64,000 nt of DNA, taken from assembly GCA_965235115.1 (NCBI GenBank), contig OZ249436.1:26166001-26230000 (forward strand), given 5' to 3'. The DNA comes from Laetmonice hystrix (lineage: Eukaryota). The translations under genes were made by a program, and so were the position numbers. The notes under the pieces were generated by a model that saw nothing but the letters and a program-made list of their open reading frames with translations, ran no database searches and was not told the origin of the DNA. Of the stretch, positions 2,136 through 45,920 are shown piece after piece; the first letter of the stretch is position 1; each line of letters begins with the position of its first letter.

Positions 2136-3787
2136 TGTGGAGTTCCAGCCCGCTGATCACCAACCACCCTCCCGCCTTAGGCTTTGTGCTTTGACACGAC
2201 TCCCGGTCCCGATGTAAACAATGACTCCCCATGACGTTTAAATCCTTTGATCTTCCTACCTGACCACACAGATGTGTGAATTTACATGTCCGATGACCTT
2301 TCCCATCCATTAGGATAAGTTTAACGACTCGTTTAGTGAGTAAGAGTGACTGAACTAGCACTATTGTGCTTGGTTACGGATTTGACGATGGGCGCCGCCA
2401 TCTTGGATCTCTGGCCGAGAGCCGTGATGTTGACAATTCCATGCACGTACCTAGCGATGACTAAAAGCATTAAATAGAGCATTAAAGTTGATAAAATAAC
2501 TAAGATTTAACGTTGTAGATGTCTATTCTAGCTGCTGGTTAGATATATTCCATGTATTGACTAAACGCGGTACGACGCCAAAGCTGCACTCTTTTGACAC
2601 TGCGGACTAGGTCAACGTTCCAATTTACGCAAGGTGGCGCCACCACTATAAATATCGCGCTCCGCCAAGCGGCAAACAGTGTTAGACGAGACGCTCAGCT
2701 ACTGCAAGCTACTGCTGCCACCTTACGTCAACCACTTCGATTCTCCGTCCCGTATTTTGATCTGATCCAACAGTCGGCGCCACGGTAAGTCAGCGCTGAC
2801 CGCGCTTGTTATCCGGACTTGTGGATGACGCGGACAGACAGAATATGACTGACTAACTGACGATTTGATCGCCTGGATGACATAGGCGGCTGTGGATGAC
2901 AACCACAGAACGGGATGACACCCCATCATGTCAATAACTGACATGACGATGACTGACTGATTGTGGGCATAGACTTTGCCCTGTACATAGACTTGTACAT
3001 ACGTTTGTTTACCTTTGACTAGACATAAGATATTAGTAATTAGACTACCACTGACTTTGTGGGTGACGTAGATTAGACATAGAGGTCTATGACTGTGGAT
3101 GACATGACACTATCTGCGGATGACATGCGGATGACATGACATGTCTTGTGGATGACATGTGGATGACATGACTCGACTTTGCGGATGACATGCGGATGAC
3201 ATGATCTAGATCTGCGGATGACATGACCTGTGACCTATGACACGACTTATGACCTTTGACCCGTAGATGCCTACAGATATACTAGAGCTTGCTCATTCAC
3301 AGTAATAATATTGATAATTGATCTACGTTAGTGTTGTGGAGTACACCACAATATTTTATATAGCAGTCATGGTAATATCTTGTTCTATTAAGCTTGTCAT
3401 AGAAGTTATTGAGTATGAAGACGACCTACTAGTCCTGTACTGGGCTTACATAGTCTAATGATATTGCTGCTTTGTGCTACCTGTTGACGTTGAGACGGTG
3501 AAGGACTGGACTGATGAAGACTTGTCAACGAGATATTGTATCGACGTCAGAAATAAAAGCTCCAACCATTATCTTTTAAACCAAATACCAGCCATTGTGT
3601 GATCTGTCCACTTGTTGTAGACGTTCCACCCAATCCTTATAAGTAGCCTACCTGGTCAATTGTCTAATGTTAACCGCCCAACGTGTTTGGGGCGGAAGTA
3701 GCGAATGCGAGAAAACAGAGTAAGAGCGAGAAAAACACAACGAGAAGTACTACCCATTACATGATTATATGATCGCAGCACGCTACA
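2136..3787 (+). mobile_element. 5' LTR of a decayed Gypsy element (left boundary uncertain)
   Basis: Ends ...GCTACA just before a PBS. Contains TATAAA (~2647), AATAAA (~3552) and an internal GGATGACATG tandem repeat (~3095-3230). The start is placed tentatively at TGTGG. Confidence 0.6.
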
Positions 3788-3794
3788 TAATTTT

Positions 3795-3814
3795 TGGTGT
3801 CGTGTGACCAGGAT
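3795..3814 (+). promoter_or_regulatory. Primer-binding site, tRNA-His-like
   Basis: TGGTGTCGTGTGACCAGGAT lies 7 nt after the LTR-terminal CA and resembles the tRNA-His complement TGGTGCCGTGACCAGGAT. Confidence 0.65.
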
Positions 3815-3837
3815 TGGGTTAGGACAAAATCAACAAG

Positions 3838-5169
3838 ATGGGCAGTTGGCTGGCTAATATTTCTAACTTCTTTGGTTGGAGGACTGTGACGCCTCGGCAA
3901 GGCAATGACTTGACAAAGACTGAAAATAAAAGACCTGACCGTAATGGTTGGATGACTACCGGTACCACACGAGACTCAGGTGTGACGGATGACTTGCCTG
4001 ACTTAGACAGGTTATCTGACGTACATGACTTACCTGACATACGCAACCTACCTGATTTACCTGACTTGCGTAACTTACCTGATGAGCCTAGATGTAGGAC
4101 AAGGGAGGTGACAAATTTGACTATGTTAGAGAGGGATGACAAGTAGGCCTATGTGAGACACGACGTACCTGTGATGGCGTCAACGCCTCACATACATACT
4201 CAAGTGAGATTTCCCCCTGATATGAGAAATGATGAGTCAACCCATGTGACTAGACCAGGGTCCCAGATAGATTTGACTTCTGTAGACGGGAACTTTCCCA
4301 TAGACAGATCTCATAGAAAGCAAAAGGAGCCCATGAGATATAATGGAAAGGGAGATTGGGATGATTACTTGAGCCATTTTCAAGCTGTAGCCCGCTGGAA
4401 TGGTTGGAGTGATGCAGAGTGTGGTATGCAGTTAGCCATTAGCCTAGTAGACGATGCCAGGGAAGTTTTAAGTAGCCTACCATTAGAATGCAGGGGAGAA
4501 TATTTTCCTCTTGTCAGAGCTTTAGAGCAAAGATTTAGTCCAAGTGGAAGGGAATCCAGGTATTCATTAGAATTAATGAGACGGACATGTAGTAGCAGTG
4601 AAGACGTGACTGCCTATGGACATGCTCTCAGACGACTTGCTTCCAAGGCCTATCCTGGAAGATGCATAGACGAGCAGGTGCTCATAGATTTGTATATTCG
4701 TGGGTTACCATCCACAATGATGAAGAGATATGTGCATTCTCAGAGGCCTAGGACACTGTCAGAAGCCATTAACTTTGCGGTGACTTATGAATCTTTTGAG
4801 GATTCCCCGATAGACACAGATGTTAGGAAGTTGAGGAAACCTCAGGGCCAGATAGACGTTAGGCCAGTGTCAACCACAAATCTGCCTAGTAAAACTGACT
4901 TGACGGACAAGGTGTCAGCAAAGTTAGACAAGACAGTGAAGGTACTAGATGACATAGAGCGAAGGTTGAGACAGATAGAGAGTAACAGTAGTGGGCCAAA
5001 CAGTTACAATACAGGTAGACGACAGCCTATGTCTGGATCAAACTCATACAGACAGACTGACAGATCCAATATAGAGTGTTACAACTGTCATGAGAAAGGA
5101 CACATTTCTAGGGAATGCCCTAAAAAGAATGACTATGCTAGGCGACTTTCTGACAGAGGCCAGAACCTG
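3838..5169 (+). pseudogene. Gypsy gag (capsid-like region plus CCHC zinc knuckle), with one in-frame stop and a 3' end interrupted by MITEs
   Basis: ORFs 3838-4146 and 4153-5217 share a frame. Capsid-like YNGKGDWDDYLSHFQAVARWNGW and knuckle CYNCHEKGHISREC are present, downstream of an LTR and PBS. Confidence 0.88.
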
Positions 5170-5437
5170 GGGCCCGTCTTACTAAACATCGTTAAGCCCG
5201 ATCTAGTTAACTTATAGCTAGTTAATAACTAGAAATCGTTATTAACTAGAGCTAGTTAAAACCCGTCTTACTAAGGTCTAGTTAGTAGCGTAACGTATAG
5301 GGAGTGGTCTAGTTAACTTAACGACTGGGGAGGGGGTGCCGCTAACGTTGTAACGTTGTCTGGCTGTCGCCTTGACGACGGCCTAGTTAACCAGCAGTTA
5401 ACTAGATCGTTAATAACGATGTTTAGTAAGACGGGGC
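5170..5437. mobile_element. MITE with ~25-bp TIRs and CWG target (Harbinger-like)
   Basis: GGGCCCGTCTTACTAAACATCGTTA ... TAACGATGTTTAGTAAGACGGGGC, flanked by CTG and CAG. Confidence 0.8.
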
Positions 5438-5440
5438 CAG

Positions 5441-7595
5441 GGGGCCGTTGCATAAAAAGCCGCTATGTGTACGGGTTCCCGTTAAGTGTCTAACGGGTAC
5501 CCTAGCGGGCCAAAGTGTTGCAGAGACCTCAGTGGGAATCCCCGCTAGTGATCAAGTGTTGCAAAGTGCACAGTCGAGCGTGACCCGGCACCCGTTAACC
5601 GCTCCTCGCGGGCTATTTTGAGATGTTTTTAACCTGTACCTCGGGAGGTGCAGGTTAACACTAACGGGAGTCCCGCAAAATGCTGACATGTTTTTTTTTG
5701 GTATCTGCATGAGGTCATCGTAATCATTGGGGCGTCGTAATATGTATATTGATCTAACCATTTAATTTGTGATATCAGTGGCGGCGCTAGGGTTATATTG
5801 GGTGACTCGAGGCAAGATAAAACATAAGTATGAAATATCTCCGTAAGTAATAAACAATCATTTATTGACCATTAGTAAACATATCGCATATTGGCGTCCG
5901 TGTATGTGTAGTGGGTACGGATGGACCATTGTGCGAATTGTAGTATTGCAGCCGTGTCCTCCATGTGAGTTCACCTGTGACAACGCCCCGGAAAATGTGT
6001 GCCTGACTCTGAAATCCGCAAAGAGGAAACATATCGTTGATAAAAACAGTATAGATACATTTCCACATGTCTAAAGGGCGAAACACACACTGAACGCGGG
6101 GTTTTCTGAGCGGCGTATGGGCCATTCTCCAACTTGGGGGCAAATTGCAATTTGCAGACATGGACAATATTTACATCTTGGAGTCTTTTTTTTATCATAA
6201 AACTAGATATGTCATGACTCCAAAACAGAAACGAGCAGCGCACTTTTATACGTTTTTGTAATTTTTTTTCCAACTGCAAATAAGCAACACAAAGTCAATG
6301 TGTCAAATCCATAAAAATCAATTTATTGGTATTTGCTTAATATTAATTTCGACTATTCTTACTCTTTACTTAAGGCTAATTATATGGGAGCACGTCCAAA
6401 ATACTCACAAGAAAATGTTCTGTCATGGAGGTGACTATGTAACGGAGATGATTTTGGTATCATTGGTATCAATGAAATTGAAATAAATGTGGTTCAAAAA
6501 CATTCTATGTGATCTCTTTCACATGCCATTTGTGTTGATCAGTTTCTATGGTTACTTCTGTTTTATAGATGTAACGGAGCTGATGGATGAATAAAGCTAT
6601 AATTTGTTTCTCCACTTTTGTTTAAAATATAGATATGTTGAAAGATTCTTCAAGACGGAAGGTGAACCATGCACCTTTAAGTTCATCTCAGAAAACAAAT
6701 CATTTGATTGGTTCCTTAATTACCTCTAATATACAGCAATAGCTCGAGGATGGCGGCAGTTAGTTGTAACAGAGTTGATAACAAAATTCAGGACAGAGCT
6801 TTGGGGGTTCAACATGATAAAAGTAGATCTATGGATAGAGGGCCTACAAACTAAAATTTTCAGAACACAAAGTTCTAATTCTGTTCAGTTCAACTCTAAA
6901 ACCTGATATGTGTCTAAGATTAGATCTATTATAGTGTGGGACAATTTCACATTGGGGGGGGGGCAAAAGATATTCTCGCCCCCCCCCCTTAAAATTTTCG
7001 GCGCCCCTGATCTTACTTTTCGATCCAGTTATTTGACGCCCACTGGTCATTTGTGAGGCGCGGCATTGTCAACCAGTCGTTCAACCAGTGCACTTGCACT
7101 CGGCCATGCACTGTTTGTAAACACTCCCATACGCAATGGCATTTTCAAAATAACATGTTTGTTCGCGTGACATGTAGGCTCATATGCATTGGGCGTTCCG
7201 TTTCTAACGTTTCTTATGTACAACACTTGTGAGTAGTTCCCCAAGCAATGGATTTCGCGAAAGGTATAAGATTACTAGGAAATACCATGATTTGTCTTAC
7301 CTTGCAGACGACACTGGCGGGGAGCGATAATACGTGTGTTCGGCTTCTTCTTCGGTGTCTCACTGCAGTTGTGTCACGCGCATGTATTTACGGGAATTAT
7401 TAACGGGTTCCCACTATAGTGCGGGGGCCCAAAACATGATTTACGGGGAATGAATTTAACGGGTTTGGCGTTTAGTGGGATCCCGCTAGGTGGTGTTGTG
7501 CAACGCTTTTTCACACTAACTTAACGGGACAGACTAAACGCGACCCCGCTAACCTTCGTTATGGCATAACTAGTGGGATTTTATGCAACAGCCCC
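5441..7595. mobile_element. Non-autonomous TIR transposon with CWG target, probably containing a nested CAGTGG...CCACTG element (~5776-7045)
   Basis: GGGGCCGTTGCATAAAA ... TTTTATGCAACAGCCCC, flanked by CAG and CTG, with subterminal TAACGGG/CCCGCTA repeats at both ends. Confidence 0.78.
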
Positions 7596-7706
7596 CTGGC
7601 CCAGCCAGCAATGACGCAAGGCCGCTAGTTTATGTGAGGACGACCGCAGCTGGTCAGTGTTGGTATGTCAATGGAGTAGTGTGTGACCGTCCCATTGACT
7701 GGCTTA

Positions 7707-9955
7707 TTATCCCATCCCCACGGAGGGGATGGGATTTTGAAATTGTAGTTGTGGGCTGTTGTTAGACACTATGTCTATCGCAGTCATTTTTCAAGATATC
7801 TCAACCAAACTTGGTACACATCTTGACCATGACGAAGTCTGGTCCCACAATGAGTCATGACGTCACGTGACGTCACGTCATGACGTCAATTTTTTGGGAC
7901 ATTGGGGGCCATTTTTAAAGTTCATATTGGGAATTTACAATATCTATCATGGAGTTTTGATCAGGCAAGGGTCCTGTCTCAAATCGACCCTTCATTTGAC
8001 CTTTGACCTTTGACCTTAGGGAGAACTGGCTCCTGGGTCAGAATCCTTTTGAATCGCTACTCCTTCCCCATTTTTTTGTATAATTGGACAATATCTGGTA
8101 GTACCATACTACAACGAAAGGTTCAAACCCCACAAAGAGGGATTAGAGATTTGACCTATATTCACTGAACCACGTGACATTGAAGTTTTGAATGGTGCCA
8201 ATTTTAGATATCTATGGCTAAAACTCGAAGATGCTTGTCTATAAGGGCCATGTTTTTTATTGTACACAGATAGGAAGTGATATGCTCTTTCATTTGGCAC
8301 CATAATTTTTAAGGGTTTACGCCCTATTTACTGAACCACGTGACCTGCAAGTTTAAAGTTAGGTCATTTGAAAGATTCCTGGCTGTAACTCTTGAAAGCT
8401 TTAAGGCAGAGCCATAATTGTTCATGAATTTTATGAAGGGCTTTTAACATCACAAAACATACAAAGAGGGATTAGCGATTTGACCTATATTTGCTGAACC
8501 ACGTGACCTTAAAGTTTTCAACAGCGGTCAGTTTAGATATTTATGGGTATAACTTGTAAACGGTGTCAGATAGGGTCATAGTTACTATTGAACATGAATA
8601 GGAAGTCGATATGGGCTTTCATTTGACATCATTATTTTGTAGGTCACGTGACCTATGACGTCATAACGATGTCACCTATATTTTCCCAGGGCCATAACTT
8701 GTAAATGGTTGAAGATAGAGCCATAGTTACTATTAAACACTAATAGGAAGTCATATATGATCTTTCATTATACACCTTCATTTTCCAGGTCACGTGACCT
8801 ATGACGTCATAAGAATGTCATTGACATTTTCTCAGGGCTTTAACTTGTAAACGGTGCCAGATAGAGCCATAGTTACTCTTGAACACGAATAGGAAGTCAT
8901 ATATGGTCTTTCATTTGACACCATTATTTTGGAGGTCACGTGACCTATGACGTCATAAACGTCACCTATATTTCCCAGGGCCATAACTTGTAAATGGTTG
9001 GAGATAGAGCCATAGTTACTATTAAACACTAATAGGAAGTCATATATACTCATTCATTATACACCTTCATTTTCCAGGTCACGTGACCTATGACGTCAGA
9101 GCAAGGTCGCCAATATGTTCTCAGGTCTATAACTTGTAAACGGTGCCAGATAGGGCCATAGTTACTATTGAACACGAATAGGAAGTCATATATGGTCTTT
9201 CATTTGAGACCATTATTTTTCGAGTCACGTGACCTGTGACGTCATAACGACGTCACCTATATTTGCCCTGGGCCATAACTTGTAAATGGTTGAAGATAGA
9301 GCCATAGTTACTATTAAACAGTAATAGGAAGTCATATGCACCCTTTTATTATACACCTTCATTTTCCAGGTCACGTGACCTATGACGTCATAAGAATGTC
9401 ATTGGCTTTTTCTCAGGACTATAACTTGTAAATGGTTAAAGATTGAGCCATAGTTACCAGTAAACCCTAATATGAAGTCATATATACATGCTCTTTCATT
9501 ATGCACCCATAATTTTCCAGTCACGTGACCTATGACGTCATAGCAAGGTCGCCAATATTTTCCCAGGGCTATAACTTGTAAACTGTGCCAGATAGGGCCA
9601 TAGTTACTATTGAACACGAATAGGAAGTCATATATGATATTTCATTTGGCACCATTGTTTTGTACGTGACGTGACCTATGACGTCATAAGGAGGTCACCT
9701 ATATATTCCCTGGGCTATAACTTGTAAATGGTTGAAGATGCAGCCATAGTTACTATGACGTCATAAGGATGTCATAAATATTCTCTCAGGATCATAACTT
9801 GACACCTTACCTGGCACTTCCCAAACACCACTGCCTATTACAGATGTGTCGGGAAGTGTCTGCCTTGAACGTAACTCTACTCAAACTCAATATCAGAAAG
9901 GACATGTCACCCCGGGGATGGGATCCATCGTGGTCTCGCCACGACATGACTAGTT
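7707..9955 (+). mobile_element. Non-autonomous Helentron-type (HINE/DINE-1-like) element with an internal tandem array
   Basis: 5' palindrome ATCCCATCCCC-acgga-GGGGATGGGAT, a 3' copy of GGGGATGGGAT followed by a stem-loop (TCGTGG...CCACGA) and CTAGTT, and insertion at TT. Confidence 0.75.
8150..9790. repeat. ~146-bp satellite array with alternating A/B units
   Basis: GTCACGTGACCTATGACGTCA (or a one-mismatch variant) recurs at ~8643, 8789, 8935, 9078, 9224, 9370, 9520 and 9666, with more diverged units upstream. Confidence 0.9.
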
Positions 9956-9987
9956 GATACTGGTGCTGCCCCCAATATATTAGACAG

Positions 9988-10724
9988 GGGTGCGTTTCAC
10001 AACCCATTGTCGTGCGTTAACTATAAGCTTGTCGTAAACTTAACGATTAACGACAAGGTCTACGATACCCCGTTGCACAACCCTTGTCGTGCGTTGGCTT
10101 GTCGTGCGCTTGCATATCGCTGTTGCTAACGTCACAAATCTCTCAGCGGAGATCATTGTTCAATACAACGTCGTGGCACCGTGAGCGTAAACCGGATGGA
10201 GCTGTTGTTTATGTTTGCTGCTTATACACAAACACTGAATTTTTTGCCTGGTATATAATAAATACTCCTAATCGTGTTTGAAACACATCATGTGTAGACT
10301 CAAAAGGGTTTTTGCTTCGTTTTGTGTTGTGGCGGTGCCTTGGCCGCCGACGATTGTGACGCCCTCTAACGTTAGAATGCGGCATCTATGCTCGACCGTC
10401 CGTCGACTGTCAGTGAGATGCTCGATCGGAATCAGCCATCCTACTTGGTATTTGGTTCTTTTTGGAAATTTTTCCCCAGGCAATTCTTAAAAGAGGCCAT
10501 ATGAAGCTGAAAACATTAGTATTTACATGCCAGATAAAAGGATTGATTAATTTTTGAGTCGTTACGACAGCTTAAAGACAGGGTCAGAGCTGTCTTTATT
10601 TTGGCCTTGGTTTACGACACCGTCGTACAGATTTTTACGCACGACAGGGGTTGTGAAACACCTCTGTCGTAAGTTGACAGTTTACGATTATTTAACGCAC
10701 GACAAGCGGTTGTGAAACGCACCC
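9988..10724. mobile_element. MITE with 17-bp TIRs and a perfect CAG TSD
   Basis: CAG|GGGTGCGTTTCACAACC ... GGTTGTGAAACGCACCC|CAG. Removing it restores the protease reading frame. Confidence 0.88.
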
Positions 10725-11729
10725 CAGACGTGTCTATTTGAATCTGCCAGCGTGGCAAAGACCGACCTTGCGTCAAAGCAGAGCTCGACTGCGGGCCGCA
10801 GATGGCAATGCACTCAGAGTGCATGGGGAAACCACCCTTGACCTGTTGGTAGGAAATAAATTGTTTAGCTTGCCTGTGACGGTAGCTGACCTTGGTGACA
10901 TACAAGGGATACTTGGTATGGAATTTCTAAATAGGGAAGAATGTCTGATAGATGCCTTCAATGGTAGACTACATTTTTCTGATAGGGAAGTAATTATGCA
11001 CCGTGATGCAAAGACTTAAAGTTGTAGAGTTAGACTTAAGGAATCTCTAGAGTTAGGACCAGATGAGGAAAAAGTTATCCATGGACAAGTAGATGACAAG
11101 AAGTGGTCAAAAACACAGACAGTTGGTGTGGTAGAAGCTGACCCTTCTTTTGTCCATGATAGTGGATTGTTAGTTGCTAGGGCATTAGTTCAGATACAAG
11201 ACAGTTTGTTGACTTTGACAGTAAGTAATTTTGGAGATGAGCCTGTGACGATTCCTGTAGGTACGACAGTAGCCTGGTTAAACACAGTAGATGTAGTTTA
11301 TAAGCAGACTAGTGAGGGCCATGACAGTAGAACTGAACTGCCTTAGTTCATATACAAGACAGTTTGTTGACTTTGACAGTAAGTAATTTTGGAGATGAGC
11401 CTGTGACGATTCCTGTAGGTACGACAGTAGCCTGGTTAAACACAGTAGATGTAGTTTATAAGCAGACTAGTGAGGGCCATGACAGTAGAACTGAACTGCC
11501 TAGTGAGCATGTTGCCTGTGTTTTGGAGGGTCCAGGTGTGGTACCTGAACACTTGCAACCGATGGTTGATTCGGCTGCTGAGAACCTGACGAGTGAGCAA
11601 AGAGACAGACTGCTAGCTCTGATTGCAGCAAATCAGACCCTTTTTGTTGGTCCTGATGGCAAGTTAGGATAGTGATACTTTCTTATTGCCGGGATCATGC
11701 ATAACATGTCACAAACAATGTAGTCTCCA

Positions 11730-11880: not shown

Positions 11881-13342
11881 AAAATATAAAGCCCCATGAG
11901 AAGGGCTTACATCTGTCCGTCCCAAAGGACTCTCGTTACAGTTGATTCTGAAACATTCGGAGCCGGTCCTGCTAGTCCTTACGTCCATACGGACTCTGAC
12001 CGTCAAGTACAAATACACCAGCGACTGCTATCCTGCCCTATCTATCTCGGTCCTATCGCGCACCTTCGCCTCAAAGTCATGTTTCAGATCACTTTTGGCA
12101 CTGAAACTTGCTGAGAGTACACAATGTATTTTGTTGGATGTTATCTTAGTAGGTGAAATTCTCAGTTTGTTTGGTCAAATTCAGCGCAGCGCAGGCGACG
12201 AGCGGTGACCCAGTTTATCGGGTGTGCATATTTCCGACCTCTATAGTGGATCCGGAACGGACCGCATATAGGTCGCGCTACCTGGCGCTGACGGCACAGA
12301 GTGAAGCAACCCGTTTCGGGTATCCTGAGCGATATAACTTTTATCAGTTCCCGGTCACTCGGTGCACCGCAGATGCTTAGGGAGCCTTCGGACCCGACTT
12401 GCACGTAATCAACCGGACGTTTTATTTGTCCAATAATTATAATCAAGGTCAGAATAGCCATTCTATCACCTCTCCTCTCTGAAAATATCGATTTCATGCT
12501 CCATAGAAGAAGTTTAGTACCAAAACGAAGGCCGCAAAGTTCCGATAACGCACCTCTTCGCAAGAATTGCTGGGCAAACGTCACTCGACAACTAAACGGT
12601 GTTCTGGAAGACACCGTTTAGAAACTGAACTACCTTTGACCAGGGTTTATTCAGTTATTTTGTGCCTGATTAAATACATGGAAGGCTTACACGATGGTCA
12701 CGGGATGGTCTTATGTAGGCTACTCCCACTTTACTCTCCGCCATTACTGCTGCAGCTACCCCACTTCAAGATGGCGACCGAGCTTTCCATGCCGGAAGGC
12801 GGCATGGCCATTCAAGGGGAATTGTGGGATTTCTATGGTTTGGATAGGGTACAGTACAGTTGGGTGTAGCCCTACACTTATTAGAATGAACCATAATCAC
12901 ACGACACAATTTGTTAAATTTAACCAATCTATTTTTCCAGTGTAGCCTTAAAACAGTTAAGAACGCTTTATATGCATTTACTGACATCACAAAGAAGGGA
13001 CCAAAGAATCAAAAACTGACATTTCATACTGACTCCTCTGTTGAAAAAGAACCGCGGATATTACTGGAATGCGCCGTTGCGCATGCGTCTCGAGTCTCCC
13101 ATTCAGTGAAACAATGAAATTTCGTCTGAACTGTAACTGTTATGAGTGGATATTGGTCACTACCCGCTTTGTGTAATGTTTATGCTACTTTAACCTAAAT
13201 TTCCAACATTCCATTCTATGGCACAGCATCTGGTAGATTCATTAAAACAACCCATTGGAGGTGCTGGCCAGCGATGCACCCATTTTGTCCAGGTGCTCAT
13301 TAACATTACGTCATTATAACTAAGTCACGAAGTTTTACAATC

Positions 13343-13900
13343 ATGGACTACTGTGCCATATGCGAAGAACCTTTGGTTGATGATCAGCAAACCGGCACCC
13401 TTCGTGAAAAAGGAAGTCTTGGTGTGAACAAAGCAAGTGAACAGCGTGGGGATGATATCCAGACATCACCTGGACAATCAGTTCATGTTTTGTGTGGGAG
13501 AGACTACTGCAATCAACACATGATAAGCCGTTATTTAAAGACAAAAACAGCAACATCATCTACCCCCAGTCGCAGTCTGCGTTCACAAAGGCCTGGGTTC
13601 AACTTTCGGGAACACTCTCTGTTTTGCAGTCGGCCAGTGGTAGCCTATGTCCAGGAAAGAAGACGGCATATGATGACACGGCTGTGTTTCCAGTTAGAAA
13701 CGATGATTTCCAGGCTTCTGTTGAAACTGCGTCTAAGAACCGTGGTGATGAGTGGGCTCATCAAGTCCAAAATAGGATCAAATTTGCACGAGATCTGCAT
13801 GCCGTAGATGCTGTTTACCACCAAGTCTGCAGCATTAACTTCAGGACAGGGAGGCAAATTCCTTTGCAATACCAGAGTTCAGAGGTCGACCAACAGACGG
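13343..13900 (+). pseudogene. Frameshifted N-terminal fragment of a DNA-transposon protein (Academ-like)
   Basis: Overlapping ORFs give CAIC...VH..C.RDYCN...LRS...FNFREH.LFC and RGDEWAHQVQNRI...DLHAVDAVYHQVCSINFRTG. This pattern is recalled from large transposon proteins of marine invertebrates; the family assignment is tentative. Confidence 0.5.
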
Positions 13901-14546
13901 TGCACGAGATGAAGCATTCCTTAAGGTGGCTGCATATCATATTTGGCCACATTTTTTCTTCTCCTCTTTTTTTTCTCTTTTGTTGCTTAGAACTCCCTCT
14001 CATTAGCTTGTATGCTTAGGAAATCTATCTACCTTTACAATAAAATTTTGTTTCCCAACAGGTGACTATCAATGACCTTGTCCTGAAGATACTGGATGAG
14101 TTCTACCAAGCCCCAAACAAAGTGATGCTGAGGCAGAGAAGCCCAGAATAATACAGACAGCAGCAAGTCTAACGAGGTAATAGGTGTTGCTGGGCAACAC
14201 CAGATCCCATTTCCCATTTATGTACATGACGTGTACATAGGATGTGTACGTGGACGTGTACGTAGCCATGACGTGTCCATGTAATTGACATGTACTTAGG
14301 TATGACGTGTCCATGTACATGACATGTACTTAGCCATGACATATACGTAGCTAAGACTAGACCTGGGGCTTAGTACGGCCATAGCAATGTGGCAGGTGGC
14401 ATTGTACTGGTCAGAAGACCCATAATGCAGCTGTCGTCAACTCGGACAGACATAGGGCCTACATAGGGACAGAGGTTGAATTAGAAGGTCTACAAGCTGA
14501 TTGGTTGGGGGCTAAAGACATGACTTGCTTTATGTTGTCTAAAGCT

Positions 14547-24494: not shown

Positions 24495-25145
24495 GATGCC
24501 GTGAAAGTGACCATGGCCAATAATACGGCAGGTACCAAGCACAATACTATGCTGCCGTATTTTGGGCCTTGCCGTGAAGGGCAAGTACCTTGCACTATAC
24601 CCCCAATGCCAGGTTTGCCTTGTATGAGGCCCAGCTCGTCATTCGCATCGAAAGGTTTAAAGCAAATGCTAACATTAATGAAAAGTTGGACGATGACCCG
24701 AATTTCGGGTTTCATAAATTTAAATATTGACGTAGCTGACACATAATGCATAGACAATCAGTAGACAACCCAAATAAACGATCGTTTTTTCCCTGCTGCT
24801 AGAGCATGGTGTATGCAGGCTGACAAATATAAGGAAGGAGGAATAAAGGGAGGAGAAAAGAGGAAGAAAGGGAGGAGGAGGAGGGAGAACGGAGGAGGCA
24901 ACGGAGAACCGGACGAACCTGGACTTAATTACATCCTTGTTGCGACTTGGCAAAAATACGGCAAGGTCACAAATACGGCACCTAAGCTGCCGTGAAAGTG
25001 GCCTGCCGTGAAAGTGGTCTGCCGTATTAGTGGCCATGGTCACTTTCACGGTAAGCCCCAAAATACGGCAGCCTAAGTGTCGTAAATGTGGCCTTGCCGT
25101 GAAAGTGGTCATGGCCCAAAATACGGCGGCCACTTTCACGGGAGG
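24495..25145. repeat. Clustered direct and inverted GCCGTGAAAGTGGCC / AATACGGCA repeats, probably transposon subtermini
   Basis: The motif recurs at ~24498, 24989, 25005 and 25096, and inverted at ~25040 and 25128. Confidence 0.6.
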
Positions 25146-28100: not shown

Positions 28101-29870
28101 CACTCTCGCGGGATATGCCGAGATTAGGCACCAGCGGGCATTATGAGCGGGTGACTGTAAAATGTTTGTATAAATAATTGTACTTTGCTTATTATATTAG
28201 TACATGTTGTAGTACTATTCTATTTTACACATATATTTGACACTGAACAAGACCAGTTACATAGGGTTGTCATCAATATGGAATGCCCCTTCTTAACAAC
28301 TTATTATCAAGTTGACCATAGGAATCAACCCGCAACTCGACAACAGTTTAACAAATGCTGGCCCAATTTCAGCTTATTCCAATTTATCTAATTACATAAT
28401 TTTTATTTCGGTTATATTTGATAAATATCCTTCGCCTCCCGTGACAAGTGATGGCGGGGGAAGGTATAGGCCGGTAGGGGGCCCATGAGTTGTGCTGCCC
28501 CGGGGCCGGCCCTGGCTGTCGATGCCACTGCTCAAAGGGCACTTACCTACAGAACAGGCGCGGATACAGGACTGCAAAGGGGGTATGTACGAAAGCCCAG
28601 AAGGCTCATGCGAAATTCGAGATTCGAAATTCGAAATTCGAAATTCCATATCTGATCTGACCAATCGGAATTCTTGTTGCATAGATCTATGCCCTATACC
28701 TAGATCTCTTTTAAGCCCCTTGGACGAAGGGACTCAGAAAGCTGTTTTAGGCACGGCGCGGCCTTTGCATTTAGGTCTTATAGCCTAAGCTGCTTAGGTC
28801 TAATCAATGCACGCAGTTAATTAGGCCATGGCCTAAAGATATAGCTATATCCTCGTAGGCCTAGTGGTGGGCTTTATCTCTCCTATAGCCTAGGCCTATT
28901 AAAGCAGTTTAAAACTTAAATATTAGGCCTAGGCCTATAGACCATTCTAGGCCTAGGCTAATCTAACGTAGTAGGGCTAGGCCTACTAATCAAATTCGCA
29001 AATTAGGCCCAACGCCTGGGCGCTTAATTACGTGTAGATCTAGGCCCCCATATAGCCCTATGCTAATTAAAGACTATAAGCCTATGACGCAGTCACTGGC
29101 GCCGATTACGACCCGATTGCCCCATTCGGGCCTATAGACCATCTAGGCCTAGGCTCATTGGCCGTGTTATCTGATTGGTCGATTTCATGGTCGATTTTAT
29201 GCAAGCTCTCCTAGCATTGGTCAAATCAGATTTCGAGAATCAGATGACACGGCCAAATAATGAGCCAAGGCCTAGATAGGTCTATAGGCCTAGGCCTAAT
29301 ATTAATATTTAAGTTTTAAACTGCTTTATTAGGCCTAGGCTATAGCACAGATAAAGCCTGCCACGCATGTATTGTATACAAAGATATCGCTATAGAGTCG
29401 GCCTAATGGGGTACTATACGCCAAAACACTCGGAAGGTGGCGCTTCCACCAACTAAGCCATCCAAAAACGAGGTTGCCATTGTAAAGGATAGGGTGGCTA
29501 CCATCAAGCCACGATTACACTTCTTTCGGGTCGTTTGTAATATTCAGACATCGTGAAAAGTGCAGACATATGTCTCTTTTGTTTTCGACATCAAACGATA
29601 CCTAATTTAAAAGATGACAAAAATTTGAAAAACCATTATTTGTATCAATGTTACCGGTTCGAGGCTAGACCTATTGTCAGAACCAATCAGCCTAGCGCCA
29701 GTTAAAAGAAATGCAAAGCCATGTACTCACAACAGTTCGGTGTCAACCAGGGGAGAAGAAAAAAGATTCGAAGAACGGAAGTGGGTAGGAATACAAACTC
29801 GGCGACATCCGCTAAGATCCGTGTTACAACGTAGTCCCGAAACCAACACCAGACGGCAGTACTGGCGTAA

Positions 29871-29887
29871 TCTCTTTTTCCTTCCTT
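29871..29887 (-). promoter_or_regulatory. Polypurine tract
   Basis: Minus strand AAGGAAGGAAAAAGAGA lies 3 nt before the 3' LTR. Confidence 0.85.
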
Positions 29888-30093
29888 GAAGGAGCAAACA
29901 GTCCCTCATTCAGTCTAGGTATGCAGTCTATGGACTGACAGATACGTAACCACTGTCTCAGACGTTGAAGCATAAAAGGGGTCTTGTCACATGTAAATTC
30001 AATCACAGCATTTTTTTCTCTTTTTCTTTTCCTTTTTCTATTTTTTTTTTTTGTATTTTCCTATGAACGATCACTTATTACTATCGTGACCAC

Positions 30094-33000
30094 CTATGAT
30101 AGCTCGTAATCCATCAACCGTTTAGGTGGTCGACGGATTCGGTCAGAACGTCTTAGTGACTGGCTGACTGTTGTCGCTTCTGTAGAATGATCACTGTCTT
30201 CAAAGTGATCTATAGGGGCCTCTATGCTCTGGCTGACCTCATTCGGAATACTACTGTCCTCTATAGGCTGCGCTACGGTCGAGAGATCTCTTTCGATCCG
30301 ATGTGGAGGCATAGCTATATCGACAGGTACGACAGGTGGTTGAGGCGGTTCAGTGGACTGTAAGGGGTACTCAACGATGTCATCTATACTATTGTCATCA
30401 TTGACACTGCTTGTGTCTCGCGAATTTAGCAAGTAACTATGGTCGACATGGGGAACCTTGTAGCATTCTGAAGACTTTACTCTATACGATGTGCTCCGTA
30501 GTTGTGAACCCACAAACTTGCGGATATTGCACCATGATCCTTCAACACGGACCACGAGATATCGATTTCTCGCCTGGGACTTGTTGCGATCGCTGTAAAG
30601 ATACACCAAATCTCCAACCTGAAGATCAGCTGAAGGGTTAGCCCTCCCTCTAGGTGACTTTGAGATTTCACTATGGGCGTGATTAGATAAGCGTTGCTGA
30701 TGTTTTTTGATAATAATCTCACGATCATTGAAGGGTATTTGTGCGTTGGAAAATTGATCGCGATGTGTCCATAACTCCCTTGCTGATAGGCCTTGAGACC
30801 GAATACGGGCATTAAGTTGAGCAGTGGCGATGGCTAGCTCTACTGGTGTAACAGTACCCCCTCTAGGCTCATGACGTAAAAGCTCATCTTGTAACTCTTT
30901 GATAGCTTTTTCTGCGATTGGGTTTTTGTTAAGGTTTTTAACTCGGCCAATCTCTACACAGATCCGATTCTGTCGTAGTACAGCATCATTGGACAAAGCA
31001 GTAAACCCAGGGGCAGGATCAGTTCGAATGACAGCAAGTGGACCATCCAATGGCCGCATCTCAATACACAGCTTTATCAATGCATCGCGGAGGGTCTCAC
31101 TGCGCTCGTTTTCCACCAAGCAAGAGCAAGTGAATGACGTAGTACACTCCCTGAGAACAAGAATAAATTGACGCTCTCTCCTCATGATGTCTGCTGCAAA
31201 AGACACCCCGATGGTCTCTGGTGGTTCAGAGGAAGACTGTTTCACGACTGAGTTAGGTACACTTTGCAACGAGCAACACTGGTGACAACTGCAAGTAACT
31301 TGATCCACATGCTTGTCCAAGTCTAGAGCAAAGAAATATCGTTCAGCTACCAGCTTTAATTGGTGTCTCGTGGGGTGATTTAGTTGTATATGTAGGGCTG
31401 TTAGCAAACCAGTCACTACCTGCCGTGGCACAATTATGCGTTCTCGGACTGACGCTAGAGGTTGTTCCTGTCTGACCACTAACAGGCCATCTTTTGCAAT
31501 GGTGGCGACACCTAAATAGCGCTTAATGTCTCTGATGTTGGTCAACTTCTTCGAGGGTCTCGTCCCCTGAATGAGGTGAGCATGAGTCCGACGTAAGTCT
31601 GGACACTCTGCTTGACAGGCTAGCCATGCTGTCCTGTTTGTAAATGGTATACGGCTCCTACCTTGGAGTACATCTTGTACAGTTACCTGAAGCACAGGAG
31701 AATCTTCGGTTTGGTTTATGAAGGTGCAAACCTGACATGATAGGTCGTTGCATTTTTGAGCGTTGCGACTTGCGAAGTCAGAAGGAATATTAGCCACACC
31801 CGCTAGATGCCGAACTGACGCTTGATACCGGCTGATCATAGATAAGAAAGTGGAGACCCTTGGGCTAGAGGAAAATTCCCCACGGCATAACTTTTCATAT
31901 GCTTGGACGCATGGTTTGCTGTCGGTGAGGATGCACGCATGATGTTTGGATTGTATTATGTAAGGACTGAAATGTTTTGTAGCGACCGCTATAGAAAGAG
32001 CCTCTACTTCACATGGAATCCAAGTAGCCTGGCGGCCACGTAACTTCGCACTGAAAAATCCAGCCAAACGTAGTACACCATCCTGCATAACATAGAGAGT
32101 AGCACCGATGCCATGATTCTTCACTGCTCCATCGGTAACAATCCACAGTTGATCTTTTGGTCTTGGGAGGACAATAGTTTTGTTGGAAACTAAAGTTTGT
32201 TGCGCACGCGAGAAGGCAGCACGGAGCTCATCTGACCACGAAATGTCCTCATAAGACTGTTTTCCGGCCACCGCATCATCCAAAGGGGATAAAATTGATG
32301 CGCACCCAGGAATGACACGAGACAACACCTTATAAGCTCCTATGAAGGACCTCAAGCCTTTGACTTTTCCAGGAATGCTACAGCTCGCAAGAGTTGAAAT
32401 ACGATGGTGACTGGCACGTATGGAACCGAGCTGCCATATCCATCCAAGAATTGTGGTGGACTTTGGACAAATAACTGTTTTAGATGCAGATAGCTTTAGG
32501 TCAGCCTTGCTCAAGGCGTCTAGAACCCTACCCCAGCTCTGGAGGAGTTCACTGGGAGAGTTTCCCCCACAGTAAAGATCGTCTGCGATCTTGACAACTA
32601 TGCCTTCCTCGACCAAGTCTCCTAGTACCCTGCACATCAGCTCTTCAAGCGCTGTCTCTGAACCCGGCATACCCATGGCCGACCTTGCGTAGACTCGAAC
32701 CCCTTTAAATGGAGTGGCAACTCCGCAAAACTTCATCGACTCCTTTGATAGGGGAATCTGATAAAAAGCATTTGTGAGATCAGTAGTTATGATGTACTTC
32801 CACTGTGCTATACTACGAAGTGTGGAATCCACATCAGGAAGGAGTGACGGTTGAGGCTTGCTGTACCTTCCTACATCGGCGAAAGCAGTAACCAGTCTGA
32901 ACCCACCATTTCGCTTCTTAACGAGGAAGGACGGATTCAAATACTCCACTGCTACGTTCACATCCTCAGGGCGGACAAAAACACCCAGCCTCTCTAGCTC

Positions 33001-35061
33001 GTCGAACTTCTGTTGGAGTTCGACGAGTTTATCCCTTCCATACTGAGGAATCCGACCTTTACGCTGGGGCGGAAGCACTGGGCCCATGTTAACCTTGGCC
33101 TGAAAAGGACCATTCGCTCCATTATAACCGGTGATGTCAGGATTAAATACATGATTATGCTTGTTAAGCAAGGCTAGGAACTCCCCTTTCACTTCTGCAG
33201 TCAGTAGGTTGTCAGGATCCACGACTACGTGTTCAGAAAAACTGTTTCCTGATGCGGTTTTAGCTTGTTTGACAGAAACTACGTTGTCCATTTTCGACAC
33301 TTTGTCAGCAGGTAAGATAGGAACATAAACAGATTGAACTTGACAGAACTGCTCGTTGCGCCTTAGTACTCGGGGTTCAGAGTCCAAATTGGGAATACGT
33401 AGCTTGCCCCCAACACTAGAAATGATGGCAGGATACGGCCAAATTTGTGAAGTTTTGACACTTCTGTTGAGAGGAGAGTCCGTACGCGGCTCTAACGCAA
33501 AGATGTCACCCTCAGATCCGATCTGGTCAGGTAGCTGGACCTCAACATACTCACCTGGCCACACTGTGGTAGCATGGCTTGGGGCTCGTAGAACGCATGC
33601 TCTCCTTACGGTATGGCAACCTTGCTCATTGCCAGAAGAACCATAGGGGTACACAGTTCCATCTCCAATCATTACCTGTCTCTTAGCCGGACGAATAGAA
33701 ATGTCATTTACCTCCATAAATGGGGTCCCAGCTAGAATGTCTACATCTAGATCCTCTACGACCAGGCCTTCGAACTGAAGTTCAAGATGGTCTCGAGTGA
33801 CAGTTAGAGCAGTCTCGCCAATGACCTTCAGAGGAGACGAACCATCAGCTTGGTGAGCACACTGGGAGCTACTTTTTACATCGATCCCTAAGAGTCTAGC
33901 TGTTGATGCTCGGATTAAATTACCAGTTGCACCGCTATCTATGGCAATCCGTGCAGTGTGATGTCGGTAGAAAGTATCAATGTAAGGGGATAGGCGTGTC
34001 TGAACTCTGAGTACTGATGACATTGACTGTTGCCGGACATCTACACCCGCGTCTTTTTCCACAAGAGAACAACCAACTTCTTCATCCGCATTTGGTTCTT
34101 CAAATATTTGAGCCACTTGTCGAGCCCTCAGCATATACTTACGATCCTGTTCAGGAAGAAATTCACACTCACTGAGAAAGTGTGAAACCTCTGGTCGACC
34201 AGCTTGACTACAAAGTGGACAACGCCTCTCAGCTTGTCTCCCTCCTTGAAGTTGAAACTTAGGTGACTGACTCGCGCGCTGACCGAAGCGGCTACCCCCG
34301 CCTCTCCTTGTTTGGGGGTAAGGACGTCCTGCACTGGCTCTCATTATTTTGGCATCTTCACATGATTTTATTTCGTCGATCAAGGAATCCAAGGCTTGAG
34401 AAATCTCTGGCTTGATTGATGCAAGAGTTCGAGTTCTTAACTCTGTTCCATAACGTTGCTTTACAAGTTTCGGAAGTTGAGGATCTATTAATCTCAACCA
34501 TGTAAGGACAACCATATTCTCAAGCGTAGGGGAAACCTCTTCATCTTCTTGTATGGCTTCACCATGATGTGTAATTCCTCCATCCCTTTTGACTAAGCTG
34601 TCGTCAATGAAAGCACACAATCGCTGGTATAAATCTTCTGGCCTCTCATTGGGCTCCAGTTGTATTTCATTGAAATCAATGAAGTGTGCACCCGTCAGCT
34701 GGAAACCAAAATGCAGACGTATAGCCTGCCATATGCTCTCGATGGAAGTGGAGTTCTTGACAATGGTGCTCCGTGAGATAATAGGACAAAAGTTTGCAAT
34801 CTGCCCAAGCATTAACTCGAGCATATGGACCTTCTGTTGAGCGGTACGTCTGTTTGCAGCAGGAACAGACTCATCATCATCGGTGAAACCACGTAGGGGT
34901 GTAGCCTTAGACTTCTTCTGCCATCTTGAACCATCCTCGAGATACGGTGCAAAGTTGTCATCTAACGATAGTGTATATAACAGGTTTTGTCTCCAAGCTT
35001 CAAAAGAAGTAACAGTCTCTGTTTTTGACAAACACCATTGCTTTGGTGCTCGCATCGCCAT
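30094..35061 (-). CDS. Gag-Pol polyprotein, 1655 aa (Gag, protease, RT, RNase H, integrase)
   Basis: Protease IDSGA...ILAG; RT DLTNAFYQI, MGMPGS, IADD; RNase H VTDGA..E..TDS..D; integrase HxxxxH..CxxC, then D(ADIM), D(TDPAPGF), E(AEKAI). The domain order is Gypsy-type and there are no stops. Confidence 0.95.
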   Translation of the reverse strand: MAMRAPKQWCLSKTETVTSFEAWRQNLLYTLSLDDNFAPYLEDGSRWQKKSKATPLRGFTDDDESVPAANRRTAQQKVHMLELMLGQIANFCPIISRSTIVKNSTSIESIWQAIRLHFGFQLTGAHFIDFNEIQLEPNERPEDLYQRLCAFIDDSLVKRDGGITHHGEAIQEDEEVSPTLENMVVLTWLRLIDPQLPKLVKQRYGTELRTRTLASIKPEISQALDSLIDEIKSCEDAKIMRASAGRPYPQTRRGGGSRFGQRASQSPKFQLQGGRQAERRCPLCSQAGRPEVSHFLSECEFLPEQDRKYMLRARQVAQIFEEPNADEEVGCSLVEKDAGVDVRQQSMSSVLRVQTRLSPYIDTFYRHHTARIAIDSGATGNLIRASTARLLGIDVKSSSQCAHQADGSSPLKVIGETALTVTRDHLELQFEGLVVEDLDVDILAGTPFMEVNDISIRPAKRQVMIGDGTVYPYGSSGNEQGCHTVRRACVLRAPSHATTVWPGEYVEVQLPDQIGSEGDIFALEPRTDSPLNRSVKTSQIWPYPAIISSVGGKLRIPNLDSEPRVLRRNEQFCQVQSVYVPILPADKVSKMDNVVSVKQAKTASGNSFSEHVVVDPDNLLTAEVKGEFLALLNKHNHVFNPDITGYNGANGPFQAKVNMGPVLPPQRKGRIPQYGRDKLVELQQKFDELERLGVFVRPEDVNVAVEYLNPSFLVKKRNGGFRLVTAFADVGRYSKPQPSLLPDVDSTLRSIAQWKYIITTDLTNAFYQIPLSKESMKFCGVATPFKGVRVYARSAMGMPGSETALEELMCRVLGDLVEEGIVVKIADDLYCGGNSPSELLQSWGRVLDALSKADLKLSASKTVICPKSTTILGWIWQLGSIRASHHRISTLASCSIPGKVKGLRSFIGAYKVLSRVIPGCASILSPLDDAVAGKQSYEDISWSDELRAAFSRAQQTLVSNKTIVLPRPKDQLWIVTDGAVKNHGIGATLYVMQDGVLRLAGFFSAKLRGRQATWIPCEVEALSIAVATKHFSPYIIQSKHHACILTDSKPCVQAYEKLCRGEFSSSPRVSTFLSMISRYQASVRHLAGVANIPSDFASRNAQKCNDLSCQVCTFINQTEDSPVLQVTVQDVLQGRSRIPFTNRTAWLACQAECPDLRRTHAHLIQGTRPSKKLTNIRDIKRYLGVATIAKDGLLVVRQEQPLASVRERIIVPRQVVTGLLTALHIQLNHPTRHQLKLVAERYFFALDLDKHVDQVTCSCHQCCSLQSVPNSVVKQSSSEPPETIGVSFAADIMRRERQFILVLRECTTSFTCSCLVENERSETLRDALIKLCIEMRPLDGPLAVIRTDPAPGFTALSNDAVLRQNRICVEIGRVKNLNKNPIAEKAIKELQDELLRHEPRGGTVTPVELAIATAQLNARIRSQGLSARELWTHRDQFSNAQIPFNDREIIIKKHQQRLSNHAHSEISKSPRGRANPSADLQVGDLVYLYSDRNKSQARNRYLVVRVEGSWCNIRKFVGSQLRSTSYRVKSSECYKVPHVDHSYLLNSRDTSSVNDDNSIDDIVEYPLQSTEPPQPPVVPVDIAMPPHRIERDLSTVAQPIEDSSIPNEVSQSIEAPIDHFEDSDHSTEATTVSQSLRRSDRIRRPPKRLMDYELS

Positions 35062-35268
35062 GGTATGCTAAGTGTATGACAAACCTGGACGATAATTCAG
35101 CTAAACTACAACGTAGATCCTCTCTGCTCACGTACTACAGATTTAGTACGGCGTAGTTGACACTACCAACCAACGTAAGGAGGTGAACTGCTCGTCTTCT
35201 GACAGTGACGTGGCTTGCACAGATAAAGATGTGTAAGTAAAGAGTTCTTGGAGGGAAGTAGCTTCGTT

Positions 35269-35286
35269 ATCCCACCGCTGCCACCA
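35269..35286 (-). promoter_or_regulatory. Primer-binding site, tRNA-Leu
   Basis: Minus strand TGGTGGCAGCGGTGGGAT directly abuts the 5' LTR and matches the recalled complement of a tRNA-Leu 3' end. Confidence 0.85.
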
Positions 35287-43261: not shown

Positions 43262-45920
43262 CACTGAAATTTTAGGTCGTCAAGGATTCGTCACATGCTT
43301 GTCAAAGTAACAAGTTTAGCCTTGTCAAGGACACTGACAAACTATTGACAAGGTCATTCTCACAAACTCGTCATAAAGTCCGTTGTAACTGCTTAGAATG
43401 TCGCTTACTTGACACGTGTTTTACACTTTCGTAATGGATGCCGACGGGAGTTAGAGGACACGAAAGAAGGTAAGCACTGCTTACAGTAGGCCTAATCTAA
43501 ATAATCTGGTATATAAATGGTGTTATATTGTGTCAGATTATCTGTATATAACAGCAGAATGTTCTTTAGACTTGGGTGGGATGTTAATTTTTGTAAAGAA
43601 TAGAAGGATGCCCCTAAAATTTATTGATTGAAAATAGGCCTCTTGCAAAAAGCCCGACAGTAGAGGCCTTTGGCTTTGTCTGGTATGAGAGTTTTGGCGG
43701 GACGGAATAGGGGGAGGGCCTAACACTGATTAGGCCTGGGCTAGGGTTTAGGGAATTCTTGGATCCGCACCTGGTTATAGCCTGATATAGGGGGGGGGGG
43801 GACAAATAATAATCGAGCCCTTTTTTTTTGACAAGGTGACGAGTTAAAACTTGTTGTTTTAGGCACCGTCAATTGACAAGCCAAAACTTGTTTATTTGAC
43901 GACCTTTTGACAAGTCTCTAGTTGACAACTTTTTGACGAGTTACAGTAGTTTTTGACAAGGTGACGAGTTAAAGCTTGTTGTTTTAGGCACCGTCAGATT
44001 GACAAGCCAAAACTTGTTTATTAGACGACCTTTTGACAAGTCTGTGTTTTAGGTGTACTCCTTTTTGGGTGCTTGGATTGGGTAGGCAAAACTACTCAGA
44101 TTGGCGAATATTTAAGTAGTTTTTGCCCGCTGAGATTTTCTATGCAGGGTAGAGAAGTAATGTTGGCTTGGTCCTCCAGGCCGTAGGGGCCAAAGTGGGG
44201 ACACTGACGCTAGTACACTGAAAACTTTAGGACGTCAAGGATTCGTCACATGCTTGTCAAAGTAACAAGTTTAGCCTCGTCAAGGACACGGACAAACTAT
44301 TGACAAGGTCATTGTCACACACTCGTCCGTTGTAACTGCTTAGAATGTCGCTTACTTGACACGTGTTTTACACTTTCGTAACGGATGCCGACAGGAGTTA
44401 GAGGACACGAAAGAAGGGAAGCACTATGCTTACAGTAATCTAAATAATCTGGTATATAAATGGTGTTATATTGTGTCAGATTATCTGTATATCATAGCAG
44501 AATGTTCTTTAGACTTGGGTGGGATCTTAATTTTTGTAAAGAACAGAAGGATGCCCCTAAAATTTATTGATTGAAAATAGGCCTCTTGCAAAAAGCCTGA
44601 CAGTAGAGGCCTTTATCTGGCATGACAGTTTTGGCGGGACGGAATAGGGGGAGGGCCTAACACTGATTAGGCCTGGGCTAGGGTTTAGGGAATGTAGGCT
44701 ATAAATTAGGTCCGTGTCTGCTTCATTACATCATTAACACAACCAGTATAGTAGACAGCGTGACATTGGATGATCTAATTTTTTTAGCCTAAAGCTCATA
44801 ATTTACATCAATTTAGTTTCTGCAACTTTTTTTTTGCTTGTTCAGGGGTCGGGTGGCAGTCCTGATGTTACACAGGCGCGGATCCGCCCCCCTAACTTTT
44901 ATTTTACACCAGATGCCAGGAAATCACATCTAAGCCTATCTTATTTTGAGAATTTTCTGTGGACCCCCCCCCCCCCCCCCGCAGAAATTCTTGGATCTGC
45001 ACCTGGTTATAGCCTAATATAGGGGGGGGGGCAAATAATAATCGAGCCCTCCTCACATTTTGGGGGCATGAACCCCCAATTCCTCAGTTCCATCACCCCT
45101 GTTAATAAGTACCCCTGTCTCATTTTGTTGTAACCAGAACCTTCCCGGTCATTTTTCTGTTCTTTTAAAGTAATCTTCCAGTTTACCAAAAAATTTAGAT
45201 AGCCTCCTCGAATTAACAGGGTCGGCCAAGATAAGTAAGGCCAGTTTCTTTAAATGACATGAAAATTGAAGGTCCAGAACATATACCGGTATTAACATTT
45301 TACTTGTGTATTTCAGGAGTGAGAAGGCCGTGGAAGAACAAGCATGAGCAAATCGTGTGCAAAAAGCTGCAGAGGCTTACTGTGAGTCTGTCGATGTATT
45401 GCAGTAAAAAAGAACTATTTCTTCACATGTACTATACAGTTAGTGAACTAATATGGACGTGTTTAACGTGAGGGGAGGGTTCTTTGATTTTATATTTCAT
45501 GGAAAAAAAAGAGTAGTGACTGTTGATGATGTCTTAAAGTTAAAAAGACAAACTGGTTATTGTATTAGTTATAAAGGATATCCCAGCGTCAAAGCAGTGT
45601 ATATGGAAAACGTGAAATATAGGGATTTTACTATCTCCATCTGTCAAGTTGTTTGTTTTGTCTGACAAACCTTTAAATAGTTTAATTAAATGTTTTTCTT
45701 CTCAGTGTGTTGCAGGCGTTTTTTTTTCTTTTCAGACATTGGCATGGATAACAGGTCCATGATTTATGCAGGGTATCCAGTCTAGTTTTTGACAAGATAT
45801 AGTGTTCTCGACAAGTTTTTGACAAGGTGACGAGTTAAAACTTGTTGTTTTAGGCACCGTCAATTGACAAGCCAAAACTTGTTTATTTGACGACCTTTTG
45901 ACAAGTCTGTGTTTTCAGTT
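43262..45920 (+). mobile_element. Two tandem copies (43262-44055 and 44216-45920) of a CACTG-ended non-autonomous element (EnSpm/CACTA-like)
   Basis: Both start TA|CACTGAAA, share ~480 bp of 5' sequence and end in TTGACAAG/TGACGA subterminal repeats. Copy 2 carries extra internal sequence. Confidence 0.72.

Follow-up and report, generated by a model that had tools for sequence, protein, structure and literature searches.

The only internal stop codon of a Ty3/Gypsy-like gag in the window (the whole 64-kb stretch of DNA analyzed here) originates from TAGGCCTA, a TA-anchored insertion of six letters at position 4144. This copy of the gene gained the letters, and the direction of the change is supported by a divergent copy that serves as outgroup. 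The insert and others like it are probably excision footprints of a TA-targeting cut-and-paste DNA transposon, Tc1/mariner-like and with ends of the form 5′-GGC...GCC-3′.

The window reads GAC AAG TAG GCC TAT GTG at 4138–4155, with TAG (4144–4146) in phase 0 as codon 103 counted from the ATG at 3838. When 3838–5217 is translated with TAG as X, this symbol appears only at residue 103 and at the terminal residue 460. This result confirms the observation of a sequence-only reading of the same DNA, in which the single internal stop in gag is a TAG that disappears on deletion of GGCCTA. The gag product contains a zinc knuckle (PF00098, residues 413–429) that scores 26.2 bits, above the cutoff of 20.8, and a match to the Ty3 capsid-like family PF19259 (residues 241–321, E 0.00016) that scores 21.6 bits, below the cutoff of 29.1. 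Thirteen relatives with 36–62% identity carry PF03732/PF19259/PF00098.

The likeness to Ty3/Gypsy gag consists of the capsid-like region, the CCHC knuckle, an LTR end, and a primer-binding-like site just before the ATG. The CA at 3787 is the putative LTR end, and the TGG-starting stretch at 3795 the putative primer-binding site. Contig depth is higher over 3668–3779. In contrast to Ty3/Gypsy elements, this copy is broken by the stop at codon 103 and by nested insertions, and a self-comparison of the window revealed no second LTR; a second copy of gag was not found in the window either. Of a pol for this element, only the protease-like remains listed in Table 1 were seen, which probably represent its continuation beyond the nested insertions. 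Between gag and these remains (5165–10740) lie nested inverted-repeat insertions with arms at 5170/5438, 5434/7602, and 9974/10738, and a 146-base satellite at 8548–9756. In a gag copy that is disrupted elsewhere too, the stop at 4144 is of little consequence.

Table 1. Coordinates of the inserts and of the retroelement parts in the window
Feature	Position	Strand	Description
TAGGCCTA	4144..4151	.	TA-anchored 6-base insertion private to this gag copy; the stop consists of the first three bases
TACCGGTA	3957..3964	.	Second TA-anchored 6-base insertion in gag; phase 2, frame stays open
TAGCCTA	3644..3650	.	5-base insertion at a TA within the LTR-like part of this copy
Independent TAGGCCTA site	43487..43494	.	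Paralogue at 44436–44437 (92% identical repeat) has TA only
Ty3/Gypsy-like gag, capsid-like region and CCHC knuckle	3838..5217	+	Broken by the 4144 stop; beyond about 5165 it passes into an inverted-repeat insertion
3′ part of putative 5′ LTR	3500..3812	+	Ends CA at 3787; from sequence, and 3787 is also where contig pieces and loose ends break off
Protease-like remains with stops, 158-base tandem duplication	10741..11672	+	Recognized by eye; no Pfam match

Other copies of the family were compared with the window over 3500–5160 (1661 bases) by means of contigs from four public runs (X1–X4), all from one sample. This comparison covers the contig pieces listed, 48 further pieces not being among them, and contig depth in it does not equal copy number. 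The six letters at 4144 are left out at depths of 291/291 in X1, 282.2/282.2 in X2, and 313.1/313.1 in X3. The corresponding figure for X4 is 0/4; here the listed contig reaches no further than 4145, a position in the TA common to both states. The main family contig, with a depth of about 250–290, lacks the six letters, and so does a divergent contig (about 90% identical) that differs by 16 other letters over about 170–190 bases and has a depth of about 27–32. No substitutions are listed in the contigs between 4136 and 4154. Since the main and the divergent contig both lack the six letters, the window carries the derived state. Since the other copies differ from it by a six-letter gap, the event is an insertion instead of a point mutation or a readthrough signal. 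The sequence-only reading had argued for insertion over deletion and had proposed the comparison with other copies that is reported here; its own argument, that the stop cannot be ancestral, is indirect, and it is the other copies that settle the direction. Around residue 103, two protein relatives of the gag product (P0002 and P0003) vary too much for the change to be polarized, and a metagenome scan for gag copies returned nine loci, all of them distant or knuckle-only matches.

The six-letter allele at 4144 is known from the window sequence alone and is present in none of the listed contigs of the four runs (one sample). This absence is expected, because contigs drop minority variants and the private substitutions of this copy are missing from them too. 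These substitutions number about six in the 1661 bases (3770, 3897, 4458, 4470, 4482, and 4993), next to a single 3-base loss at 3663.

Two more inserts distinguish the window copy from the contigs. The six letters at 3957 are left out at full depth in X1–X3, in the main contig only, as the divergent contig skips this region. The five letters at 3644 are left out at depths of 399.2/399.2, 393.9/393.9, and 533.2/533.2 in X1–X3, respectively. These two inserts are polarized by majority only. All three insertions private to the copy, spread over about 500 letters, are TA-anchored duplications. TA starts at 111 of the 1661 positions of the compared stretch; if 4144 is set aside as a selected site, the two remaining inserts are both TA-anchored, for which the rough chance is 0.004. 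Two of the three TAGCCTA words in the compared stretch, at 4440 and 4473, are native and not inserts. Expressed as rates, about 2.7% of the TA sites in the copy were hit and 0.36% of the bases were changed (3 versus about 6 events). At the implied rate of three inserts per six substitutions, an estimate drawn from three events, transposition would have to be very heavy.

The consequence for the protein depends on where the target TA falls in the reading frame. A six-base TAGGCCTA scar produces a stop only if a codon begins with the target T, and in the other phases it adds Gly-Leu or Arg-Pro. In gag as it stands, 16 of the 95 TAs are in the stop-making phase. The insert at 3957 adds two residues at codon 40 and no stop, so that both possible effects of six added bases are present in this gag copy, a stop at 4144 and an open frame at 3957. 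The five-base form of the scar leads to a frameshift. The earlier suggestion that the process can create nonsense codons without shifting the frame holds for a six-base insert, but is arithmetic and is silent on effects in host genes.

A difference of the same kind is visible at a second locus. The paralogues at 43487 and 44436 differ by the same six letters as the window copy and the other copies at 4144. Among the in-window paralogue indels, 1 of 13 over 3042 aligned columns is of the scar type, in a comparison that has no outgroup.

The word itself is much more common in the window than expected by chance. TAGGCCTA occurs 40 times compared to 0.68 expected, a count that none of 100 shuffles reached. 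Its single-mismatch neighbors have counts of 0–7, compared to 80 for the word itself with both strands counted. The flanks of the 40 sites are unrelated and share no fixed consensus base. A series of related words was compared with 200 order-2 Markov simulations of the window. TAGGCCTA (40 observed, 1.26 expected), TAGGCTA/TAGCCTA (33 observed, 8.31 simulated), and TAGGGCCTA/TAGGCCCTA (7 observed, 0.62 simulated) all exceed every one of the 200 simulations. They continue to do so after removal of a motif-rich foldback cluster, with counts of 23, 23, and 7. Words that would derive from 2-nt GG or from GGG ends are at background in the same simulations (TAGGTA class, 33 versus 27.9; TAGCTA, 14 versus 13.5; TAGGGTA class, 7 versus 7.5; TAGGGCCCTA, 0). 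The unpaired join TAGGCGCCTA occurs 0 times in the window, with 0.05 expected. In total, GGC-type words amount to 73 per 64 kb, or about one per kilobase.

Two further words stand out in these simulations. TAGATCTA occurs 9 times compared to 1.15 simulated (at 6824, 6921, 16343, 28682, 29035, 37889, 39190, 47612, and 47989) and is probably a third scar type, seen here as a word and not as an indel. TACCGGTA occurs 3 times compared to 0.36 simulated, and 3 of the 200 simulations reach this number. The 5-base partners of both words are not enriched. On the footprint model, TAGATCTA and TACCGGTA would be scars of other families.

The foldback cluster is a composite element with nested inverted repeats (28600–29695 plus 35463–37120). 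It holds 17 of the 40 TAGGCCTA words, several of them as tandem TAGGCCTAGGCCTA. This element may be a repeated target, or else a native carrier of TAGGCCTA.

What we observe is insertion, its direction, duplication of the TA, independence from the flanks, and an enriched series of words; from these we infer the transposon, its ends, the length of its overhangs, and the repair route. The following sequence of steps would account for the scars. A transposon that targets and duplicates TA would have inserted at a TA in gag and excised later. Cleavage a few bases inside the element would leave each flank with an identical 3-nt 3′ overhang (GGC), and end-joining of two such overhangs could proceed in three registers. 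Two-base pairing (G:C/C:G) would give TA-GGCC-TA, full overlap with a central mismatch would give TA-GGC-TA or TA-GCC-TA, and a one-base overlap would give TA-GGCCC-TA or TA-GGGCC-TA. At 4144, where the target T would have been the first base of a codon, the scar would read as a stop and leave the downstream frame intact. The insert at 3644 would be a scar of the same family, and that at 3957 would be a scar of a CCG-ended family. The three enriched GGC/GCC word classes match the three joining registers of GGC overhangs, with the largest excess for the register that pairs perfectly; this register model was fitted after the counts had been seen and is not a biochemical test.

These steps are modeled on Tc1/mariner elements, which are described as duplicating TA and as being cut a few bases inside their ends with 2–3-nt 3′ overhangs (PMC6943129, PMC3878927). 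The footprints consist of the terminal 2–4 bases of the element between two TAs (PMC6943129, PMC3878927). The inserts described here share some of these traits. A duplicated TA is found at 4144, at 43487/44436, at 3644 (TA-GCC-TA), and at 3957 (TA-CCGG-TA). The core is fixed and independent of the flanks over 40 sites. Finally, the products fit the repair of 2–3-nt 3′ overhangs, and GG-only, GC-only, and GGG words are not enriched. Highly stereotyped scars are not universal, since excisions in rice are mostly messy: 8 of 94 left just two target copies and the rest carried deletions or filler (PMC4423477).

A first alternative to an excised transposon is an insertion that involves no resident element. 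An enzyme would cut at TA and add fixed letters to both ends before joining them, as could be imagined for a transposase or nuclease that has been domesticated and works with templated fill-in, or for telomerase-like addition of G after TA. The very high density of the words (73 of the GGC type in 64 kb) speaks for this possibility, as does the failure to find a donor in the window; in addition, the usual telomere repeat of animals contains TAGG. The missing donor is weak evidence because 64 kb is a small part of the genome. Against this alternative, there are at least three different cores (GGCC, CCGG, and GATC), which do not fit one telomere template but do fit several transposon families, and the GGG-type and GG-only words are not enriched. 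We consider an element-free origin unlikely.

The search for a donor of the proposed GGC-ended family covered the window. No convincing element bounded by TA-GGC...GCC-TA inverted repeats was found in the 64-kb window, and the element-filled state of any scar site was seen neither in the window nor in the contigs of the one sample. No transposase family was detected among the 20 ORFs scanned with Pfam (20 of the 63 listed ORFs or parts). The best lead is a 529-base segment at 24547–25075 with 31-base inverted arms that are 90% complementary and with TA on both sides. One end of this segment starts with GGC and the other with TGC, and it sits among further repeats with ill-defined boundaries, which makes it a weak candidate for the scar-making family. 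An apparent TA-CCGG...CCGG-TA element at 52762–52984 was discarded as the inverted repeat continues outside of the TAs, which are therefore not element ends. Similarly, the TA-GGCA pair at 28748/36005 lies inside a longer inverted repeat and was rejected as a pair of element ends. Alignment of the diverged copies at 28655, 36065, and 35945 for different scars at one TA was uninformative, with a column identity of 59% that is too divergent for this purpose.

The perfect palindrome formed by TAGGCCTA could also point to hairpin opening of the hAT type or to repair templated by local flanking DNA. This origin is contradicted by the occurrence of the same core at unrelated flanks (4144 and 43487), and we regard it as very unlikely. 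hAT footprints are described as random (PMC3878927). It is extremely unlikely that the six letters are an assembly or consensus error in the window copy and absent from the animal. None of the listed contigs carries them, but contigs drop minority variants, and the six private substitutions of the copy are missing from the contigs as well. Moreover, an error process would not be expected to produce three TA-anchored words of different sequence here, nor 40 occurrences of TAGGCCTA across the window.

The opposite direction, ancestral letters that the other copies lost by slippage between the two TAs, is hardly credible for 4144. Direct repeats of 2 bases could in principle mediate such a deletion, the 43487/44436 pair comes without an outgroup to fix the direction, and P0002, a protein with 62% identity, shows no more than a gap of one residue near 4144, in a variable region. 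At 4144 itself this direction is contradicted by the main contig and the divergent contig (about 90% identical), both without the six letters, and the family could not have spread with an ancestral stop ahead of its capsid region. Finally, we can dismiss a simple C-to-T nonsense change and a conserved programmed-readthrough TAG, either of which could yield a TAG with nothing further in its favor: the other copies show a six-letter gap instead of a substitution, neither CAG GCC TAT nor a conserved TAG, the patterns by which the sequence-only reading could have been overturned, occurs at 4144 in any listed contig, and the stop precedes the capsid-like region instead of marking the gag-pol junction, where stop-codon readthrough is known.

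Canonical Tc1/mariner footprints include TA-CAG-TA/TA-CTG-TA of Sleeping Beauty and those of Frog Prince, Himar1, and Hsmar1 (PMC6943129, PMC3878927). The inserts resemble them in the duplicated TA and in the short fixed core between two TAs, and TAGGCTA/TAGCCTA form a reverse-complement pair of 5-base scars like TACAGTA/TACTGTA. In contrast to Tc1/mariner footprints, the core is GGC/GCC/GGCC instead of CAG/CTG, the most common product adds six bases instead of five, no element with such ends was found in the window, and the words are as dense as roughly one per kilobase of genomic DNA. The likeness concerns the footprint, and membership in Tc1/mariner is putative. Six-base footprints are known from Tc1 (TA-CATG-TA) and Minos, where a four-base core plus the second TA preserve the frame. 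Unlike those, the core found here begins with G and thereby turns a TA at the start of a codon into TAG. Other groups with TA-containing targets are Zator, Sailor (DD82E), and PIF/Harbinger-related elements, and the ends of Zator and Harbinger start with GG. Zator makes 3-base duplications (PMC10045372), and Sailor duplicates TATA and has ends that start with GT or CC (PMC8533490). The sites described here have a 2-base TA duplication and no third fixed base, and Zator and Sailor fit less well as donors.

A literature search, conducted largely without subscription papers, returned no account of TAGGCCTA as a genome-wide scar among the matches listed. A bolder and rather unlikely possibility is that, in this animal, fixed TA-anchored insertions with several cores occur with a frequency similar in magnitude to that of point substitutions, by way of an undescribed GGC-ended transposon group or an element-free cut-and-fill enzyme. 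If so, these insertions would be a main route of gene inactivation in this lineage, by stops at codon-start TAs and by 5-base frameshifts, and would also introduce two-residue insertions into proteins. For the host, the stop at 4144 changes nothing; its value is that of a polarized event among near-identical copies. It provides a before-and-after record in which insertion at TA gives rise to the abundant TAGGCCTA, as well as to TAGCCTA and TACCGGTA, and in this copy does so almost as often as substitutions occur. The locus thus contributes an event polarized by an outgroup, a copy with two scars besides this one, and a pattern of joining registers from which donor ends can be predicted; the scar spectrum predicts ends of GGC and a stagger of 3 nt. 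If the process operates genome-wide, transposon scars would be a leading source of small insertions in the lineage, one that standard indel models miss.

Several other features of the window were recorded. In the TA-rich sequence at 3641–3642, three bases from the scar at 3644, the contigs that represent other copies depart from the family sequence, and one of them continues with a sequence starting with CAGGG, as if a small TA-targeting element had inserted. The segment at 13304–14200 contains degenerate frames with cysteines and histidines but no Pfam match, and these are possibly the remains of a gene associated with a DNA transposon. A young and intact Ty3/Gypsy-like element (29696–35463), with LTRs that are 98% identical, interrupts one arm of the foldback element. 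Its ORF (30094–35067, − strand) encodes 1657 amino acids with protease, RT, RNase H, and an integrase zinc finger. The LTRs appear to end in CG...CG instead of TG...CA, and an apparent 3-base TAG repeat flanks the element. It contains 0 GGC-type words in 310 TAs compared to 5.5 expected; this depletion was not counted in support of the scars, since 63 of 468 windows of equal size are likewise empty. Near the start of the window, a single-exon Gemin6 gene (592–1137) immediately follows the last exon of a neighboring gene (301–516) on the same strand, at a distance of less than 80 bases. A lophotrochozoan host is indicated by the best named matches of this Gemin6 gene, which are from bivalves and an annelid, with 53–57% identity.
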